Source: Chloroflexota bacterium (GTDB lineage Bacteria; Chloroflexota; Dehalococcoidia; Lucifugimonadales; UBA3495). From it: a stretch of DNA of 64,000 nucleotides. The stretch is taken from NCBI GenBank assembly GCA_027623675.1, contig JAQBVF010000019.1, positions 12,746 through 76,745 on the forward strand. Direction: 5' to 3'. The stretch's first letter is position 1; every line of letters starts with the position of its first letter. This document shows positions 6,001-12,000 of the stretch, piece after piece. The position numbers are program-made.

Positions 6001-9000
6001 ATATGGATTACCTCAGGTCGAGAATCCGTCTGACGCGAGCTTTGGCGACAATATTGCCCGCGCTCACTTTTTCGATCGTTCTGATTCAGATTCGAGATGA
6101 ATCCTTGGATTGGGTATGGTTCGCATCGCTGATTCTGCTCGGCTCGGTTTACTCGTTTTCGATCCTGGCCAAAGTTCAGGCGCCTGGGTTTCGAAGATTT
6201 AGCGGGCATCGGCCTTTCCGCACAGATCGGGCTCAGGCATATCTATCAACAAAGCGTAGTTTATCGTGGTTTGCATTTCGTGAGCTGCAAACGTGGCTGT
6301 TCTTGGTCTTATACATAGGGTCGATTGGGGCTTCACTGGCAAGTGGAATGTACGTTTATGTAGCCTGGGCCAGCGCGGGGTTCGCCCTATGTCTGCTAGT
6401 CACTTGGTCTTGGTGGCGAATAACCAATACCTTCATGTCATTTGTTGAAGATTTTGCCAGATTTTATGAATGATTACCGCCGCAGGGTCGCCGCCTGAGC
6501 GAGGACCCCAACCGGTCGGTCATCCTGCTTGAGGCCCCATCTTACCTGCGCCCAACGTGGCCACCACCCAGCGCACGTCCGGCGCTGGAGCGATAATGAA
6601 AAGACCGTGGTCAGGGGCGACGTTCATCCGAGAACGGACGGGAATCCTGATATACTGGCGTCCAATTTGATGCTGGGCTGGGCCGGGGGTCAAAAAGCAT
6701 TACGGAGCAGAGAATATGGGAATCTTGAACGACGACATGAAGCGGGTGGTCCGGCAGCAGCGCATGGGGTTCATCGCCACCGTGTGCGCCGACGGCACCC
6801 CCAACCTCTCGCCTAAGGGCACGGCCACGGTCTGGGACGACGACCATCTGGTCTTCGCCAACCTGGGCTCGCCGATGACCATCGAGAACCTGGCCCACAA
6901 CCCAGCCTGCGAGATGAACATCGTGGACACCTTCCTGCGCAAGGGCTACCGGTTCAAGGGCACCGCCGAGTTGCTGACCAGCGGCGACCTATTTGAGGAG
7001 ATCAAAGACGCCTACACCACCGGCAGCCGCGGCATACAGCGCTCGGGGATACCAGCCAAGGGCTATGTGCTGATGACCGTGACCAAGACCGCGCCGCTGG
7101 TGTCTCCCGGCTACACCCCCGGCAAGACCGAAGCCGATATGCGGGAGGAGTGGACCGGCTATTGGGCCGGAGTGCAGGAAGCAAACACCTAGGATCCAGT
7201 CCCACCTGGACCGCGTCCGGACCCGGCGCGGCGCATCCAAGTACCTGGCCCAATCGCCATTCGATCCATTAGCTGGGAATAGGAGTCCAACCATGTCCTG
7301 GATAGAAGAAGTCTCAACCGAACTTCCCCCGGTGATCGCGTGCATGTCTATCAACAAATCGGCTATGGAAGCGGTGCAGAACCTGAATTCCTCCATCACC
7401 TTCGGCGCTTCCGCGTTGACCAGGGTCCAGGAGGAGGCCATCGCCACCGTTGTATCCACCACCAACCGGTGCCGTTATTGAGCCTTGGCCCACGGAGGGT
7501 TCCTCCGTCAGCATTCCGGTGACGCCGAATTCGACAATCACATCATGCACGACTACACCCAGGCCGCCCTGGACGACCAGACCAGGGGCATATTAGATTT
7601 CGCGGTCAAGCTCACCGAGGACCCGTCGGGCAGCAAGAAAGCGGACCTGGAGCATCTGCGCAGTCTGGGCCTAAGCGAGCAGCAGATACTTTCCACGGTC
7701 CTGATCACCTGCGTGTTCAACTTCATGAACCGGCTGGCCGACGGCCTAGGCGTGGAGATGCCGGACAACCGGGTGGAAGCCGCCAAACGGTGGCTGTCGG
7801 CCGACGCCCAGGCCATGGACTGGCTGATGACCCCCAAAGAACGCTAGCCGGCGCGCCGATGCGATCCGGTCACTTGGCGCCCCGACAAGCTCGATACCTG
7901 GCAGCCGCGAGATCGCAGGGCGTGAATGACCAGACTGGGCAGTCAGGTCAGACCCCAGCCGCCGTTCAGCCTCAAATTTTGCTATAATCCAAGCCTCGAG
8001 CGGGCGTAACTCAGGGGTAGAGTGCTTGCTTCCCAAGCAAGATGTCGTGGGTTCAAATCCCATCGCCCGCTCCAAACTTCATCCGGGCCTATACAGGCGT
8101 ATCCTCCTCAAACCATTCCGGTAATAAAAAGAGGATGTACGAAAAGCGATACGACGCTTCGGACACCCTTTTCATAAACCTCTATTCCTGCGATTTCGCT
8201 GCAACTCCATTTCCAGACCCTGGCTTGCCTCAAATTAGATATACTAGCTAACCGGTTTCTCCACAAAAATCAGCACCGACCTTGGGCCAAGGGATTATTC
8301 TGCCGGCGACATTTCCTGTTCGACGGCAAACCAGCTCAACGGATTGGCAAAAGGGAGACGATCTCATGGCCTCTCCAATCTGCGGCGTTTGTGGCTATAA
8401 ATTTCCTGACACGGAATCGGCTAAAGGCCCATGTCCGAACGCGGGGAAGCACCGGGAAATTCGAAACCAGGAAACCATGGATGATTATTTTCAACGCCGC
8501 AATTTGTTCCGGACCCTGGACTCTGCAGGCGAAATTCTGAGGACGCGCAGATCAAAGAACCCAACAAATCGTGAGCCGAAGAACCCAGCGCCGGCTGACT
8601 CCAAACCAGCGGATAATCGAGCGGCTGATCCTGAGCCGGTCGACGGTGAATGGTCCAGCCTTCACCATTTCCAAGGGATGTCACCGAGGGAACTGGAATC
8701 TGAAAGACAGCGCACACTCAGGCAGATCGAGCAACGCGGTAAGCCGAAATGGATTATCAAAACTGTTGTGTCAGTGGCGGTTGTGGGGATCGTAGGATTG
8801 TTGGGATTCGCGGTTGGAGTCCAATTTTTGCCATTGGACGACCAACCCGAGAAGATGATTGATTCGGGCGCTTCTGGTGAAGCAGGAATTCCTACCGGGC
8901 CAAACTCAGACCTCCCAAAATCTAATAGTGCCGCAGTATTGGTACCTACCCCGACTCGAGCATCAACCCTCGCTCCTAGTGCCAAAGATCAACCAGCCAC

Positions 9001-12000
9001 TATGGAGCCAACCCTGACACTAAACGAAATTTTGGGCAAACTAGATCGAGGGGAGATCAGCGAGGCTGAAACAAAGCTGCTTTTGCTCCAATCATCAACT
9101 CCAGAAAAATCCAAGCCGGAATGCCGTATCAGCGTCCTAGTGTCGCCAACCTCCATAACCAAGATATCCTACACTTATGATTTCAACGTATTGAATAACT
9201 CAACTTCTGGCCAGCCAAGCTTCTCATGGTCATTTTTTGCTCCCACCGGTGTACGGTTCCCCAACCAGACTTTTCATTCCATACCAGACTCCAGTTGGTC
9301 ATTGTTGAAACTGCCCATCGACGGTCCCCCGTATGACGAATATAGGTTTACCACTGACTCCAACCCGATGCAGTCGAATGGGAGTTCGTTGGCCTTTTCT
9401 ATTGGGACTCGATCGACTCCGGTTTCCGGCGGAAGAGGAGTCATCTCATTCGCCGATGGAACGGTCTGCGAAATTCAGAATCTTCAAGTGCCTGGCGCTG
9501 CGACCGTTAACTAGGATCGTCGCGCCGATCTGCAGCTTGGATGTGAGTAGTCGATTTTTGGGCATGAAGAAGCCAGTTAGCAGAATCAAAGATGTCGTGG
9601 GTTCAAATCCCATCGCCCGCTCCAAACTTCATCCGGCGCACCTGGCGGACCCCTCGGACACCAACTTCCGCGCTAACATGGGGCTGGCAGATCTGCTGGC
9701 TAGGAGGCTACCGTAGTAGTTGTAGTGGGTGCGCCCGACCGGCGTGTACGCTGCACGGTTGCTGCCAGCCATCTTCGACGTGCCGGGAGTTTTGGTCACA
9801 TGTCCCGATTATCAGCCTTTCTATTCGCGGCCCTCATGGTTGGCGCGATAGCCTGCGGGGGTTCCGCCACCGGACCCGCCTCAGCCACATCGCCCGCCAT
9901 TAACACTGGGGCCACGCCCACACCCGCTGCCGGCCCGACTACTGACGCGCCACTGGTGGCCCAGCCCAAACTCGGGACAAACGTGGGGGAGACGCTCCCG
10001 CCGTTCGAGTTCGCCCTGTTCGACGGCTCGGTGCGGTCAACCGCACAGCTAGCCAGCCAGGGGAGGCCGGTGTTCCTATTCTTCTTCGCCACCTGGTGAC
10101 CCGTCTGCCGCTCCGAGTTACGGAGCATGAAGGATGTCTACCCCGAGTACGCCGACAGGGTCGATCTCTACGCCGTGGGCCAAAGCCCTTTCGAGGACAT
10201 CGATTTGATGGAGGAGTACCGGATCGAGCAGGGCTACCCGTGGCCCGTGGCCAAGATCGACCCCAACGTGCTGAAAAGCCTGAATGTGTTCGTGCAGTCC
10301 ACCAAGATCGCGCTTAACGGCGACGGCGTGATCACCTACCGGGCCGGCTACGGCGACGGTGGCGTGGAGGTCTGGCGGGAGGTCTTTGAGAACCTGGTGG
10401 ACCCAGCCAACCGCTAAGCAGACGGCTCGGCGTGCTTACTGGACGCGCCGGTAAACCAGATCGACCAAGCCGGCCGTTCCCGCTGCCGACTGCAGCCGGA
10501 AGACCGCGACATCCCGGGTGTCTCCGGTGATGCCGCCGGGTGTGGTGGACTTTTTGAAGGTCCACAGATACAGGTTGTACTTGTCGCTGATCAACGATTC
10601 AAAGCTGTTCGGCTCCGAATCCATGTACCCGTTGACCACCAGCGTATTGAAGTCGAGGGCCGTGAATTCGGCCAGGAACACCGCCAGGGTAACGTCCTTG
10701 CCGGTCCCGGTGAGCGGGTCGATGATCTGGAACGGTGTTTTGCCGTCTTTCGCGAAGAAAACCACACTCCTCACGCCGTCCGAAACATCGTCGGTGGCTG
10801 GGAACACGGCCGGATAGGCCAGGGTTCCGGCCACGCCAACACCGAAGGCCCTCTCCGGCCATAGCTTGGTGATCTCCTGTGTGACATTGTCGGAGGTGAC
10901 GGCCTTCAATCCCAACACATCATGGTCGAACCGGGAGATGATCCCGACGCCGCCCTGATCGGTGAAGAACTGGTTGGCCGCGTTGAATACCGTATCCGAG
11001 TCGTTCGCTACCTGGGCGTCGCGGCTCTCGTCGGTTGTTCCGGACACCGACGACGTGACGATGCCCGCCAACACGCCTACGATGGCCATCACGGCCAACA
11101 GTTCAATGAGGGTAAAGCCTCGGCTGTTGTTGAGAACAGCATCCCTGATTCTTTGAAACATCTAGTTTGGTCCCCCGGTCAACCTGAATCTGACGCCGTC
11201 GGTGCGCGGCAAGCAGCCTTCGGTCTGGGTGCATTTCTTAGGGTTCTTGCCCTTAAGGTTAGGCCCGCCGGCCGGAAAAATCGCCGGTGACTGCCTGCAA
11301 TTCGGTTGGGGGAAAACCCGCAACCTGACCGGAACCCGCCAGATGTTTTGGCAAATGGGGGTTGAGTTTGACGGCCCCCGCGCACGGTGGTAGATTCTCG
11401 CCAGCCGGGACCAGCCTATCTCCGCCGGGACAGGGGGCCGGCCGGGATTGCTTGATGCCGGGAGATGCGGTGCCAGCCAAAGTTATCTGCAAGACCATCG
11501 ACTTGCTCCAATTTCCCGCGATCGCGGAGTTCATCTGGCATCTGCTAACGAGGGTCAGCCGGCTGACCGAAGACGAGACCGGCGCGGCTAAGCAGGTGCT
11601 TGGGGTTGAGGCCGTCCGGTTCGGCCGGGTCCGGGTGGCGGAAGGCCGGGTCCTGCGCCTGTTTTTCCGGCTGAACGGCTCCAGGGCTTTCACCCTGTTC
11701 CACACTCTCAACCTACCGGCGGAGGGGCGTCACTCCAGGGGAAATCTGGACCTGCTGGTGCACGAGATGGTCCACGTGCGGCAATTTGAATCGGTCGGTA
11801 CGATCTACATCTGGCAGGCTTTGAGGGCGCAAAAGGCCGAGGGATACAGCTACGGCGGTTGGGAAGGCCTGGCTGCCGAAAGGCCGGACGGGAAGCGGTT
11901 CAGCGGGTTCAACCGCGAGCAGCAAGGTCAGATCGCCCAGGACTACTACAACCTGGTCCTAACACCCGGCCTGCCCCAGGAAAACCCGGTCCGGCTGGCA

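Follow-up and report, generated by a model that had tools for sequence, protein, structure and literature searches.

Two predicted selenoprotein genes lie close together on the forward strand of the window, by which we mean the whole 64,000-nucleotide stretch analysed here (G000:C43:12746-76745), and each is interrupted by an in-frame TGA (Table 1). Contig positions equal window positions plus 12745; the preliminary description ran the two numberings together and was off by this amount, although its start and end (7293-10417) are correct, and the codons it placed at contig positions 20224 and 22842 correspond to window positions 7479 and 10097. The draft genome comprises 3,070,397 bases in 48 contigs (60.9% G+C), with estimated completeness and contamination of 91.4% and 5.71%, respectively.

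Table 1. Features of the selenoprotein gene pair and of the selenocysteine (Sec) machinery; positions refer to the window unless a contig is named.
Feature	Position	Strand	Remarks
AhpD/CMD-like "peroxidase-related enzyme" selenoprotein gene (gene 1)	7293..7847	+	184 aa; predicted active site C60-R-Y-U63-A-L-A-H67 (CRY[U]ALAH)
Gene 1 Sec codon UGA	7479..7481	+	supported by ortholog conservation
Gene 1 bSECIS hairpin ACGGAGG-GUU-CCUCCGU	7492..7508	+	starts 13 nt past U of UGA
tRNA-Gly(CCC)	8000..8074	+	ARAGORN; between both selenoprotein genes
48-nt perfect direct repeat, left copy	8039..8086	+	3' portion of tRNA-Gly and 12 further nt
410-aa ORF inside 1550-bp insertion	8282..9514	+	N-terminal Cys-rich stretch; one hydrophobic segment
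48-nt direct repeat, right copy	9589..9636	+	
TlpA/ResA/DsbE-like thioredoxin-fold selenoprotein gene (gene 2)	9800..10417	+	205 aa; predicted active site W-U100-P-V-C103 (TW[U]PVC)
Gene 2 Sec codon UGA	10097..10099	+	supported by ortholog conservation
Gene 2 bSECIS hairpin GCUCCG-AGUUA-CGGAGC	10110..10126	+	starts 13 nt past U of UGA
tRNA-Sec	C23:60570-60666		
SelA	C33:33048-34382		554.8 bits; above NCBIfam cut-off
SelB	C45:32549-34405		347.7 bits; above NCBIfam cut-off
SelD	C3:53424-54344		Sec-containing, one in-frame TGA; above NCBIfam cut-off

The conventional ORF of gene 1 (7293-7481) is closed by the TGA, beyond which the frame remains open to position 7847, and an AGGAG motif can be seen by eye 8 nt upstream of the ATG. 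The read-through protein is placed in TIGR01926 by its score across residues 11-155 (Bitscore: 119.5; cut-off: 81.8) together with the motif C60-x-x-U63-x-x-x-H67, and it also matches the Pfam CMD (33.3 bits) and ahpD_dom (33.3 bits; cut-off: 27.8) models. A TGA is found at this codon in 20/20 non-self matches sharing at least 56% identity. Across 80 named loci, the position is occupied by U in 74, Gly in four and another stop codon in one, with one locus uncovered and Cys in none; as four relatives have Gly and one a non-TGA stop here, the Sec residue is not indispensable. In a paralog on contig C26 a Cys is aligned to the U. The gene 1 product is predicted to be a cytoplasmic AhpD/CMD-type protein with Sec in place of the second Cys of the CxxCxxxH redox centre, and is most likely a hydroperoxidase or a disulfide/sulfenate reductase that works through its selenol, with catalysis most likely cycling via a Cys60-Sec63 selenenylsulfide.

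Gene 2 shows the same arrangement, with an ORF (9800-10099) closed by TGA and a frame open beyond it to 10417. Its product carries an N-terminal signal with a lipobox-like AIAC sequence, and exceeds the Pfam cut-offs for AhpC-TSA (42 bits against 26) and Redoxin (32.3 bits against 26.6), both alignments spanning the U. The NCBIfam equivalog cut-offs for ResA (39 against 170), DsbE (35.4 against 123.15) and TlpA (17.7 against 230) are all missed. Alignment to the orthologs begins at residue 1, and the TGA is present in all 44 non-self matches with an e-value of 1e-22 or lower, which come from genomes in 14 of the order's 17 sampled families; its position is identical in the 12 and 19 sequences that were inspected. 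Thioredoxin-fold paralogs elsewhere in the genome provide the comparison with Cys at this position. The encoded protein would be membrane-anchored and outward-facing, with Sec as the attacking N-terminal residue of its CxxC motif; its most likely role is to reduce disulfides or oxidised thiols in exported proteins. A CcdA/DsbD-type membrane reductant (PF02683) was not found in the 91.4% complete genome.

Directly downstream of both TGA codons lie hairpins in which compensatory change can be observed. For gene 1, pairing holds in 98.4% of the cells in an alignment of 63 sequences, compared with 43-60% once the partner strand is slid; 11 cells are changed on both sides, and the covariation score was reached by 0/500 shuffles. 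For gene 2, the corresponding values across 31 sequences are 83.3% against 28-50%, with both-sided change at 6/6 pairs (16 cells), 0/500 shuffles matching the score and an invariant G21-U22-U23 loop. Judging by this anatomy, SelB with its Sec-tRNA(Sec) would bind the short hairpin 13 nt past the U of UGA, the loop offering GUU approximately 20 nt downstream, and the UGA would then be decoded as selenocysteine rather than as a stop. Folding energy taken alone is no evidence: the "dG -11 to -27" that had been cited as evidence does not set these sites apart, as the 60 nt following the two window TGAs give z values of -0.33 and -0.18 relative to shuffled sequences. When a hairpin is defined by a stem of 6 bp or more and a loop containing G, with its start 18-31 nt past the TGA, it is found at 25/32 Sec sites of the genome, including eight UGSC paralogs that are not independent of one another. 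Among sense TGC/TGT/TGG codons the same pattern occurs at 1929 of 12453, and among the TGA stops that end long ORFs at 84 of 515, so that the Sec sites, taken as a set, are enriched for a properly placed hairpin.

The two genes are separated by a tRNA-Gly(CCC), which also stands between the two selenoprotein genes of a relative (L068), and by a 1550-bp insertion; a 48-nt direct repeat is also present between them in two copies. The insertion is missing from L068, where the selenoprotein genes are 526 bp apart. No family was assigned to its 410-aa ORF in a Pfam search.

The window genes form part of a larger set. The preliminary description had counted about 29 selenoprotein genes, a fair lower bound, and its 23 readable sites all show the TGA, an open frame on both sides and the motif quoted. 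Each of the 23 matches a thiol-redox or (seleno)protein family with a profile alignment across the U. Eleven additional sites were found, with profiles spanning the U in all 11, bringing the count to 34 sites, one of which is a frameshifted DsbA-like gene. Within the genome, 25 sites align with Cys or with the Sec of another candidate. All eight UGSC copies retain [U]G[S/G]C, of which five score above the NF041046 cut-off of 125 and three below it (102.2, 86.5 and 85.6). A Sec/Cys pair in an NMT1-like gene (C21:2809-3747), with the TGA in 12/12 full-length orthologs, has no entry among the selenoprotein catalogues searched. No Sec-containing formate dehydrogenase was found, the FdhA-like gene being free of stops. 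Intact genes of the selenoproteome very probably number at least 33, spread over about 20 families, nearly all of thiol-oxidoreductase types.

That these TGAs are selenocysteine codons, as had been proposed, is upheld by their conservation in orthologs whose coding sequence on either side remains constrained, by the covarying hairpins and by the presence of tRNA-Sec, SelA, SelB and SelD in one genome. If TGA were instead a general sense codon in a reassigned code, with no Sec-specific recoding, many frames would likewise remain open on read-through, as they do; however, TGA terminates 515 ORFs that are 300 codons or longer, the in-frame TGAs with support amount to only about 34 and sit at redox Cys positions with hairpins, ARAGORN found no further UCA-anticodon tRNA, and the genome has a dedicated tRNA-Sec with SelA and SelB, so that this explanation can hardly be correct. 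It is also very improbable that the TGAs are lesions, whether pseudogenes or sequencing and assembly errors, such that the joined genes are dead or mis-assembled. The genome is a contaminated draft of 48 contigs, one DsbA-like gene has a frameshift, and one MFS transporter gene does harbor a private in-frame TGA. The latter served as a negative control: its TGA is found in 0/15 orthologs, and the ortholog test therefore distinguishes Sec codons from lesions. For the 11 sites covered by that test a lesion is contradicted, as the close orthologs examined, down to 36-56% identity, have TGA at the same codon; for the remaining 23 of the 34, support comes from profile, motif and the hairpin enrichment of the set. 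Moreover, the TGA always falls where paralogs have Cys, and covarying hairpins follow it.

Orthologs across the class indicate how widely the trait extends. SelA scores above the cut-off in 218 of the 301 class genomes sampled (72%), one of them (G284) unpublished, and UGSC is present in 19/19 other genomes of the genus, at 5-12 matches per genome, and in 24/24 other genomes of the family; every UGSC ortholog among the matches listed has the TGA, with 51 further matches beyond these. This distribution supports the Sec trait as one that would belong to the clade and not to this genome alone. The host itself encodes a heme-copper oxidase (COX1: 530.6 bits in a profile search), and in 3.07 Mb shows 88 matches to PF00296 (Bac_luciferase, luciferase-like monooxygenase) and three to PF13378, that is, an expansion of flavin-dependent monooxygenase paralogs without one of the enolase superfamily. 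In the portion of PMC10444878 available, expanded luciferase-like monooxygenase paralogs mark SAR202 group III, a dark-ocean group. The host is probably an aerobic, FMN-monooxygenase-rich marine Dehalococcoidia bacterium of the SAR202 group III type, a label that derives from paralog content and from related record titles which read merely Dehalococcoidia, Chloroflexota or Chloroflexi. We consider it highly likely, on comparative sequence grounds, that the two genes in the window truly encode bacterial selenoproteins and that the clade as a whole shares the large selenoproteome, made up of families already catalogued from ocean metagenomes.

Several broader claims of the preliminary description fared differently. 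The Sec codons, the selenoprotein richness, the aerobic oxidase and the group III signature stand, whereas the claims of a record, of a so far unnamed source and of a cultivable clade find no support. The SAR202 isolates belong to group I (GTDB order UBA1151), a group other than that of the host, and "selen" terms were not found in the main text and seven searchable supplement files of the paper describing them. The host holds no record, because Dehalococcoidia MAGs with 49 and 46 selenoprotein genes are already in BSepDB (PMC13326102, Table 2); the same table gives 48-54 for Nitrospinota-labelled MAGs, and a Methylomirabilota MAG with 63 is mentioned in a review (PMC13188914). Nor was the source unnamed, as one of these Dehalococcoidia MAGs (isolate 10f4566d...) is a relative with the same AhpD-like Sec gene (L116, L126). 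In the portion of the BSepDB text available, the MAGs are not linked to SAR202, an aerobic lifestyle or the GOS families. Almost all selenoprotein genes here fall in known families, and larger sets have been tabulated for related genomes.

Whether SAR202-type Chloroflexota are the main, unrecognised home of the ocean's UGSC, PrdB-, AhpD-, SelW-, DsbA- and Trx/Prx-like selenoproteins, with selenium as a major need, is a separate matter, and we regard it as unlikely. Every family named occurs in this genome, several in multiple copies; the spread of UGSC and SelA described above points the same way; no taxonomic assignment appears in the portions of the GOS papers available; and the literature searched includes none with both "SAR202" and "selenoprotein". 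The 80 closest AhpD-like loci, 76 of which belong to records with Dehalococcoidia, Chloroflexota, Chloroflexi or "uncultured bacterium" in the title, are, however, a biased sample, being those nearest to a query from this genome, and close AhpD-like Sec genes are also carried by Binatia- and Thermodesulfobacteriota-labelled MAGs (L149-L152). GOS was furthermore a surface survey, as against the dark-ocean habitat given for group III in the part of PMC10444878 available, and Dehalococcoidia MAGs already stand in the top ten of BSepDB (PMC13326102, Table 2). We tentatively suggest, as a joint proposal that may well fail, that SAR202-type Dehalococcoidia as a whole could have 30-50 selenoprotein genes per genome although they live aerobically, and that families absent from the catalogues, such as the NMT1-like pair, could also lie hidden in the clade. 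If so, these bacteria would be a major reservoir, though not of necessity the main one, of the ocean's thiol-redox selenoprotein families, and selenium would be a growth-relevant trace element for still uncultured dark-ocean groups, at odds with the current review statement that selenoproteins are rarely retained by aerobic bacteria.

Among known systems, the bacterial SECIS of the E. coli fdhF type is a hairpin located directly 3' of the UGA and bound by SelB. The window hairpins are, like it, intragenic, start 13 nt past the U (10 nt past the codon end) and present an apical loop with G then U approximately 20 nt downstream; they differ in their short stems of 6-7 bp and in a GUU loop that is invariant in both families. 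Gene 1 shares the CMD/AhpD fold, the CxxU motif followed by His and the single Sec with the "AhpD-like 1" family of ocean metagenomes (COG2128), for which 299 GOS sequences were reported (Zhang & Gladyshev 2008, PMC2398784 Table 2). In contrast, it reaches neither of the NCBIfam selenoprotein models AhpD_rel_CFYUT (NF041238; 55 against 175, in a match confined to the C-terminal half of its 357 positions) and YciW-related, and it is without the second, divergent AhpD-like Sec gene that adjoins its ortholog in relatives. Gene 2 has the thioredoxin fold, the W-[U/C]-P-x-C motif and the attacking-position Sec in common with the "Trx-like" and "Prx-like" UxxC selenoproteins of ocean metagenomes and with TlpA/ResA/DsbE oxidoreductases, and the N-terminal export signal with ResA/TlpA. 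It departs from TlpA/ResA/DsbE in scoring below the equivalog cut-offs and in belonging to a genome without detected CcdA/DsbD, and does not adjoin cytochrome c maturation genes. At the level of the genome, the closest counterparts are the BSepDB v1.0 MAGs UBA1141 (49 genes) and 10f4566d... (46 genes), listed in the available part of PMC13326102, which belong to the same class as the host and exceed its 34; the latter encodes AhpD-like orthologs that share 60-61% identity with gene 1 and keep the TGA.

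Two selenoprotein genes are located in the window, an AhpD/CMD-like gene (gene 1) and a TlpA/ResA-like thioredoxin-fold gene (gene 2). Their span, 7293-10417, is given correctly in the preliminary description, but contig and window counts were treated there as equal, an error of 12,745. Under translation table 11, gene 1 is divided into an ORF (7293-7481) that stops at the TGA at 7479-7481 and a second ORF in the same frame, which runs to 7847. The read-through translation contains the active-site motif C60-R-Y-U63-A-L-A-H67 (U: selenocysteine, Sec), and residues 11-155 match the NCBIfam 'peroxidase-related enzyme' model TIGR01926 (119.5 bits; cut-off: 81.8). 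The product further passes the AhpD core domain (33.3; cut-off: 27.8) and matches the Pfam CMD family, while its score against the selenoprotein model AhpD_rel_CFYUT (55) falls under the cut-off of 175. When 40 relatives were searched, all 20 non-self matches with at least 56% identity contained exactly one TGA, accompanied by a TAA in one of them. Among the 80 best named loci, with one genome per species, the codon aligned to the Sec is TGA in 74, Gly in four (loci L133-L136) and another stop in one (L147), with one further locus (L148) uncovered, and Cys is found at this codon in none of the 80. The remaining motif is intact in the four Gly loci and in L147. In several relatives (loci L049, L050, L052, L053 and L056) the gene 1 ortholog is adjoined on the opposite strand by another, divergent AhpD-like gene bearing a C-Q-Y-[U] site of its own; none was seen beside gene 1 in the window. 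Sec would be inserted at the gene 1 UGA in a SelB-dependent manner, and the enzyme may operate through a Cys60-Sec63 selenenylsulfide cycle on peroxides or on the oxidised thiol of a partner.

The gene 2 product carries a hydrophobic N-terminal signal which, by eye, ends in a lipobox-like AIAC, followed by the active-site motif F-A-T-W-U100-P-V-C103. It clears the Pfam models AhpC-TSA (42; cut-off: 26) and Redoxin (32.3; cut-off: 26.6) and scores far under the cut-offs of the specific ResA, DsbE and TlpA models, and is therefore described as a general TlpA/ResA-type exported thioredoxin-fold protein with no named ortholog. TGA is present in 44/44 non-self matches (e-value: ≤1e-22; identity down to 34%), derived from genomes of 14 of the 17 sampled families in the order, and its codon position is identical in the 12 + 19 sequences inspected. 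Weaker matches are Cys paralogs, mostly without a TGA. Following a predicted SelB-dependent insertion of Sec at its UGA, the protein may serve as an outward-facing disulfide reductase in which Sec makes the attack. No match to the DsbD/CcdA transmembrane reductant (PF02683) was found in the genome, which is 91.4% complete, although it encodes two or more exported TlpA-like Sec proteins. The proposed function of gene 2 is weakest here, as no electron donor is known for it. The gene 2 search also retrieved eight TlpA-like Sec gene fragments of 109-116 aligned residues each, spread across four contigs of another genome (G002); four share the same score (86.7 bits), and together they look like a multi-copy element carrying a piece of a Sec gene.

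An in-frame TGA may represent a lesion or sequencing error rather than a recoded codon, and the strongest support for the Sec reading in genes 1 and 2 is comparative. Ortholog comparison separates the two cases, as is evident from an MFS transporter gene (C47:14580-15905; L046) whose TGA at C47:14829 is present in 0/15 orthologs; this gene was rejected as a Sec gene and represents either a pseudogene or an assembly error. The preliminary description also cited the folding energies of downstream hairpins. When the 60 nt after the TGA are folded alone, however, the z-scores for genes 1 and 2 (-0.33 and -0.18, respectively) lie near those of shuffled sequences, and such energies thus carry no weight in a genome of 61% G+C. 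Hairpin position and covariation do carry weight. The stem starts 13 nt after the U of the UGA in both genes, and G21-U22-U23 is invariant in both loops. In the gene 1 hairpin, 98.4% of cells are paired across 63 distinct sequences, against 43-60% when the pairing partner is slid, and two pairs are altered on both sides (11 cells), for example with G-C to C-G and G-C to A-U changes in the Binatia-labelled loci. In the gene 2 hairpin, all six pairs are altered on both sides (16 cells; 31 sequences) and 83.3% of cells are paired, against 28-50% when slid. Neither covariation score was reached by any of 500 shuffles, which constitutes good evidence rather than formal proof, as related sequences inflate such tests. 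Both window genes combine a conserved UGA, a covarying hairpin and family membership with the full insertion machinery.

The two genes are separated by a tRNA-Gly(CCC) gene. A stretch of 48 nt, comprising the 3′ part of this tRNA and 12 further nt, is perfectly repeated in the same orientation at 9589-9636, and the direct repeats enclose 1,550 bp, the only ORF of which (8282-9514; 410 residues) matches no Pfam family. No integrase is encoded in the enclosed sequence. In one relative this same tRNA lies between both selenoprotein genes, which are a mere 526 bp apart, and the insertion is absent. Region 8000-9636 has the appearance of a small, integrase-free insertion at the 3′ end of the tRNA-Gly(CCC) gene. 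Downstream of gene 2, a 241 amino acid ORF on the reverse strand (10436-11161) shows, by eye, a prepilin-type N-terminal motif (G-F-T-L-I-E-L-L).

Features of the window (window positions) and eleven additional Sec sites of the genome (contig positions)
Feature	Location	Position	Strand	Remarks
Gene 1, AhpD/CMD-like	window	7293-7847	+	184 residues when TGA read through
Gene 1 hairpin	window	7492-7508	+	ACGGAGG-GUU-CCUCCGU; covariation
tRNA-Gly(CCC)	window	8000-8074		between gene 1 and gene 2
Gene 2, TlpA/ResA-like	window	9800-10417	+	205 residues; TGA 10097-10099, then open to 10417
Gene 2 hairpin	window	10110-10126	+	GCUCCG-AGUUA-CGGAGC; covariation
Luciferase-like monooxygenase match	window	4215-5030		one of four in the window, of 88 in the genome
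Luciferase-like monooxygenase match	window	12191-13096
Luciferase-like monooxygenase match	window	32577-33476
Luciferase-like monooxygenase match	window	43552-44289
DsbA-like Sec site	C47	63358
Second DsbA-like Sec site	C44	13977		gene frameshifted
Deiodinase-like Sec site	C20	62201
ArsC/Spx-like Sec site	C17	100379
BtuF-like Sec site	C10	65069
OsmC-like Sec site	C10	64620
DUF3179 Sec site	C44	22244
Rhodanese Sec site	C6	48917		rhodanese domain fused to Na+/H+ exchanger
Tandem rhodanese Sec site	C45	66125
FtrB-like Sec site	C15	42677
NMT1-like protein Sec site	C21	3046

The genome encodes a single tRNA-Sec (C23:60570-60666; ARAGORN), together with SelA, SelB and SelD over their cut-offs, with one TGA inside SelD. 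The 23 Sec sites legible in the preliminary description (eight UGSC, three PrdB/GrdB-like, two AhpD-like, two SelW-like, seven thioredoxin-fold and SelD) all exist as described, with a family match across the U in each. Five of the eight UGSC copies exceed the NCBIfam cut-off, and the three distant PrdB/GrdB-like proteins fall under every cut-off of their group. Scans for in-frame TGAs followed by family profile checks added eleven sites, giving 34 in about 20 families. The earlier observation of selenoprotein genes holds, well above chance; their number, about 29, was a fair lower bound, and the 13-17 families slightly low. TGA conservation among orthologs was checked for 11/34 sites (genes 1 and 2, the eight UGSC genes by family search and the NMT1-like gene), while the remainder rest on profile, motif, alignment within the genome to Cys or Sec (available for 25 sites) and hairpin enrichment across the set. 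A hairpin of at least 6 bp with a G-containing loop, starting 18-31 nt after the TGA, follows 25/32 Sec sites; the corresponding frequency is 15.5% for sense TGC/TGT/TGG codons and 16.3% for TGA stops at the end of long ORFs. The second DsbA-like gene (C44:13929-14600), with its Sec TGA in Y-T-[U]-P-Y-C, undergoes a +1 frameshift some 50 codons into the gene, which reflects either an error or decay of this copy. No Sec formate dehydrogenase was found in the genome, its FdhA-like gene being without a stop, and no Sec GPx, with only weak matches lacking stops; a search for a DUF427 Sec gene found none.

Codon-usage log-odds scans returned 352-1,182 in-frame TGA candidates. The majority were shadow frames or the normal ends of genes, and 4-5 of the 23 known sites were not recovered. 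Being too noisy, these scans served solely for choosing 17 extra candidates by eye. Several of the 17 were rejected by family scan: TrpD ends just upstream of the TGA at C6:24374, PlsY begins downstream of that at C33:48529, two domains occur at C27:21112 with neither matching across the TGA, and no family matched at C26:57153, C31:558 or C47:178131. The TGA at C10:141435 was also discarded, lying five codons from the end of a MaoC-like protein. BLAST comparison of 3,423 TGA windows against all ORFs of the genome identified 58 with Cys at the TGA position in at least 60% of aligned hits; the new ones are mostly low-complexity shadow frames, the tandem rhodanese gene being the sole addition.

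The NMT1/SsuA-like gene (C21:2809-3747; L037, L173) encodes a protein without a signal peptide and carries its TGA in Y-R-A-[U]-E-E-G. This TGA is kept in 12/12 full-length orthologs (78-88% identity), four paralogs (36-40% identity) have an invariant Cys at its position, and downstream of it a hairpin of 6 bp, its loop reading GUC, is seen by eye. Two luciferase-like monooxygenase genes adjoin the gene, which is rare beyond the genus (4/150 other genomes of the class, one with TGA). No NCBIfam selenoprotein model matches the protein, and the terms NMT1, PF09084 and PF13379 do not occur in the available texts of PMC13188914 and BSepDB, the 111-family list of the latter being given on its website only. 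It may possibly represent an uncatalogued selenoprotein family.

The genome encodes heme-copper oxidase subunit I (530.6 bits) and contains 88 luciferase-like monooxygenase matches and just three to the enolase superfamily. According to the SAR202 cultivation paper (PMC10444878), monooxygenase expansion marks SAR202 group III, the dark-ocean group, and enolase expansion marks group I, to which the SAR202 isolates (order UBA1151) belong. In its paralog content the genome is consistent with a SAR202 group III type; the titles of related records go no further than Dehalococcoidia, Chloroflexota or Chloroflexi bacterium. SelA exceeds its cut-off in 218/301 genomes drawn from the class, one of them unpublished (G284), and in 164/222 of the better genomes. 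UGSC genes occur in 19/19 genus mates (5-12 each) and 24/24 other genomes of the family, with TGA in every one among the matches listed, beside which there are 51 further matches; 14 control genomes yielded no UGSC match. Selenoprotein richness across the genome is genuine, and is a property of the clade.

No paper pairing 'SAR202' with 'selenoprotein' was found in the literature search, and SAR202 papers naming 'selenocysteine' or 'seleni...' do so in passing only. A sponge study reports SelA and SelB as enriched in symbiont bins (PMC5649159). No selenium terms occur in seven supplementary files of PMC10444878 (file 1 excluded). The families of this genome are exactly those given as commonest in the GOS papers, to which the portions consulted assign no taxa. 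The top ten of BSepDB (PMC13326102, Table 2) includes two MAGs of the Dehalococcoidia, one with 49 genes and one with 46, and the 46-gene MAG carries a gene 1-type AhpD-like Sec gene (L116, L126). The richness of the class has thus been documented before, and a count of 34 sets no record, a Methylomirabilota MAG cited in PMC13188914 having 63 genes. On these sources, none of the earlier claims, of a record, of a so far unnamed source and of a cultivable home (the isolates belonging to group I), is supported as written. A link of this richness to SAR202, an aerobic lifestyle and the GOS families is absent from the literature examined, as far as its text was available. Gene callers split all selenoprotein genes of this genome in two, which leads to systematic mis-annotation of the redox proteome in an abundant ocean clade. 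A concrete cultivation hypothesis also follows, namely selenite supplementation for dark-ocean SAR202. Genes 1 and 2 themselves add unexceptional members to selenoprotein families that are already catalogued. Section 10 of the 2026 review PMC13188914 holds that aerobic bacteria seldom retain selenoproteins and names anaerobic phyla as the richest, and Chloroflexota is not mentioned in the text available; a clade-wide complement of at least 30 Sec genes in a heterotroph that is aerobic and rich in oxygenases would be at odds with this view.
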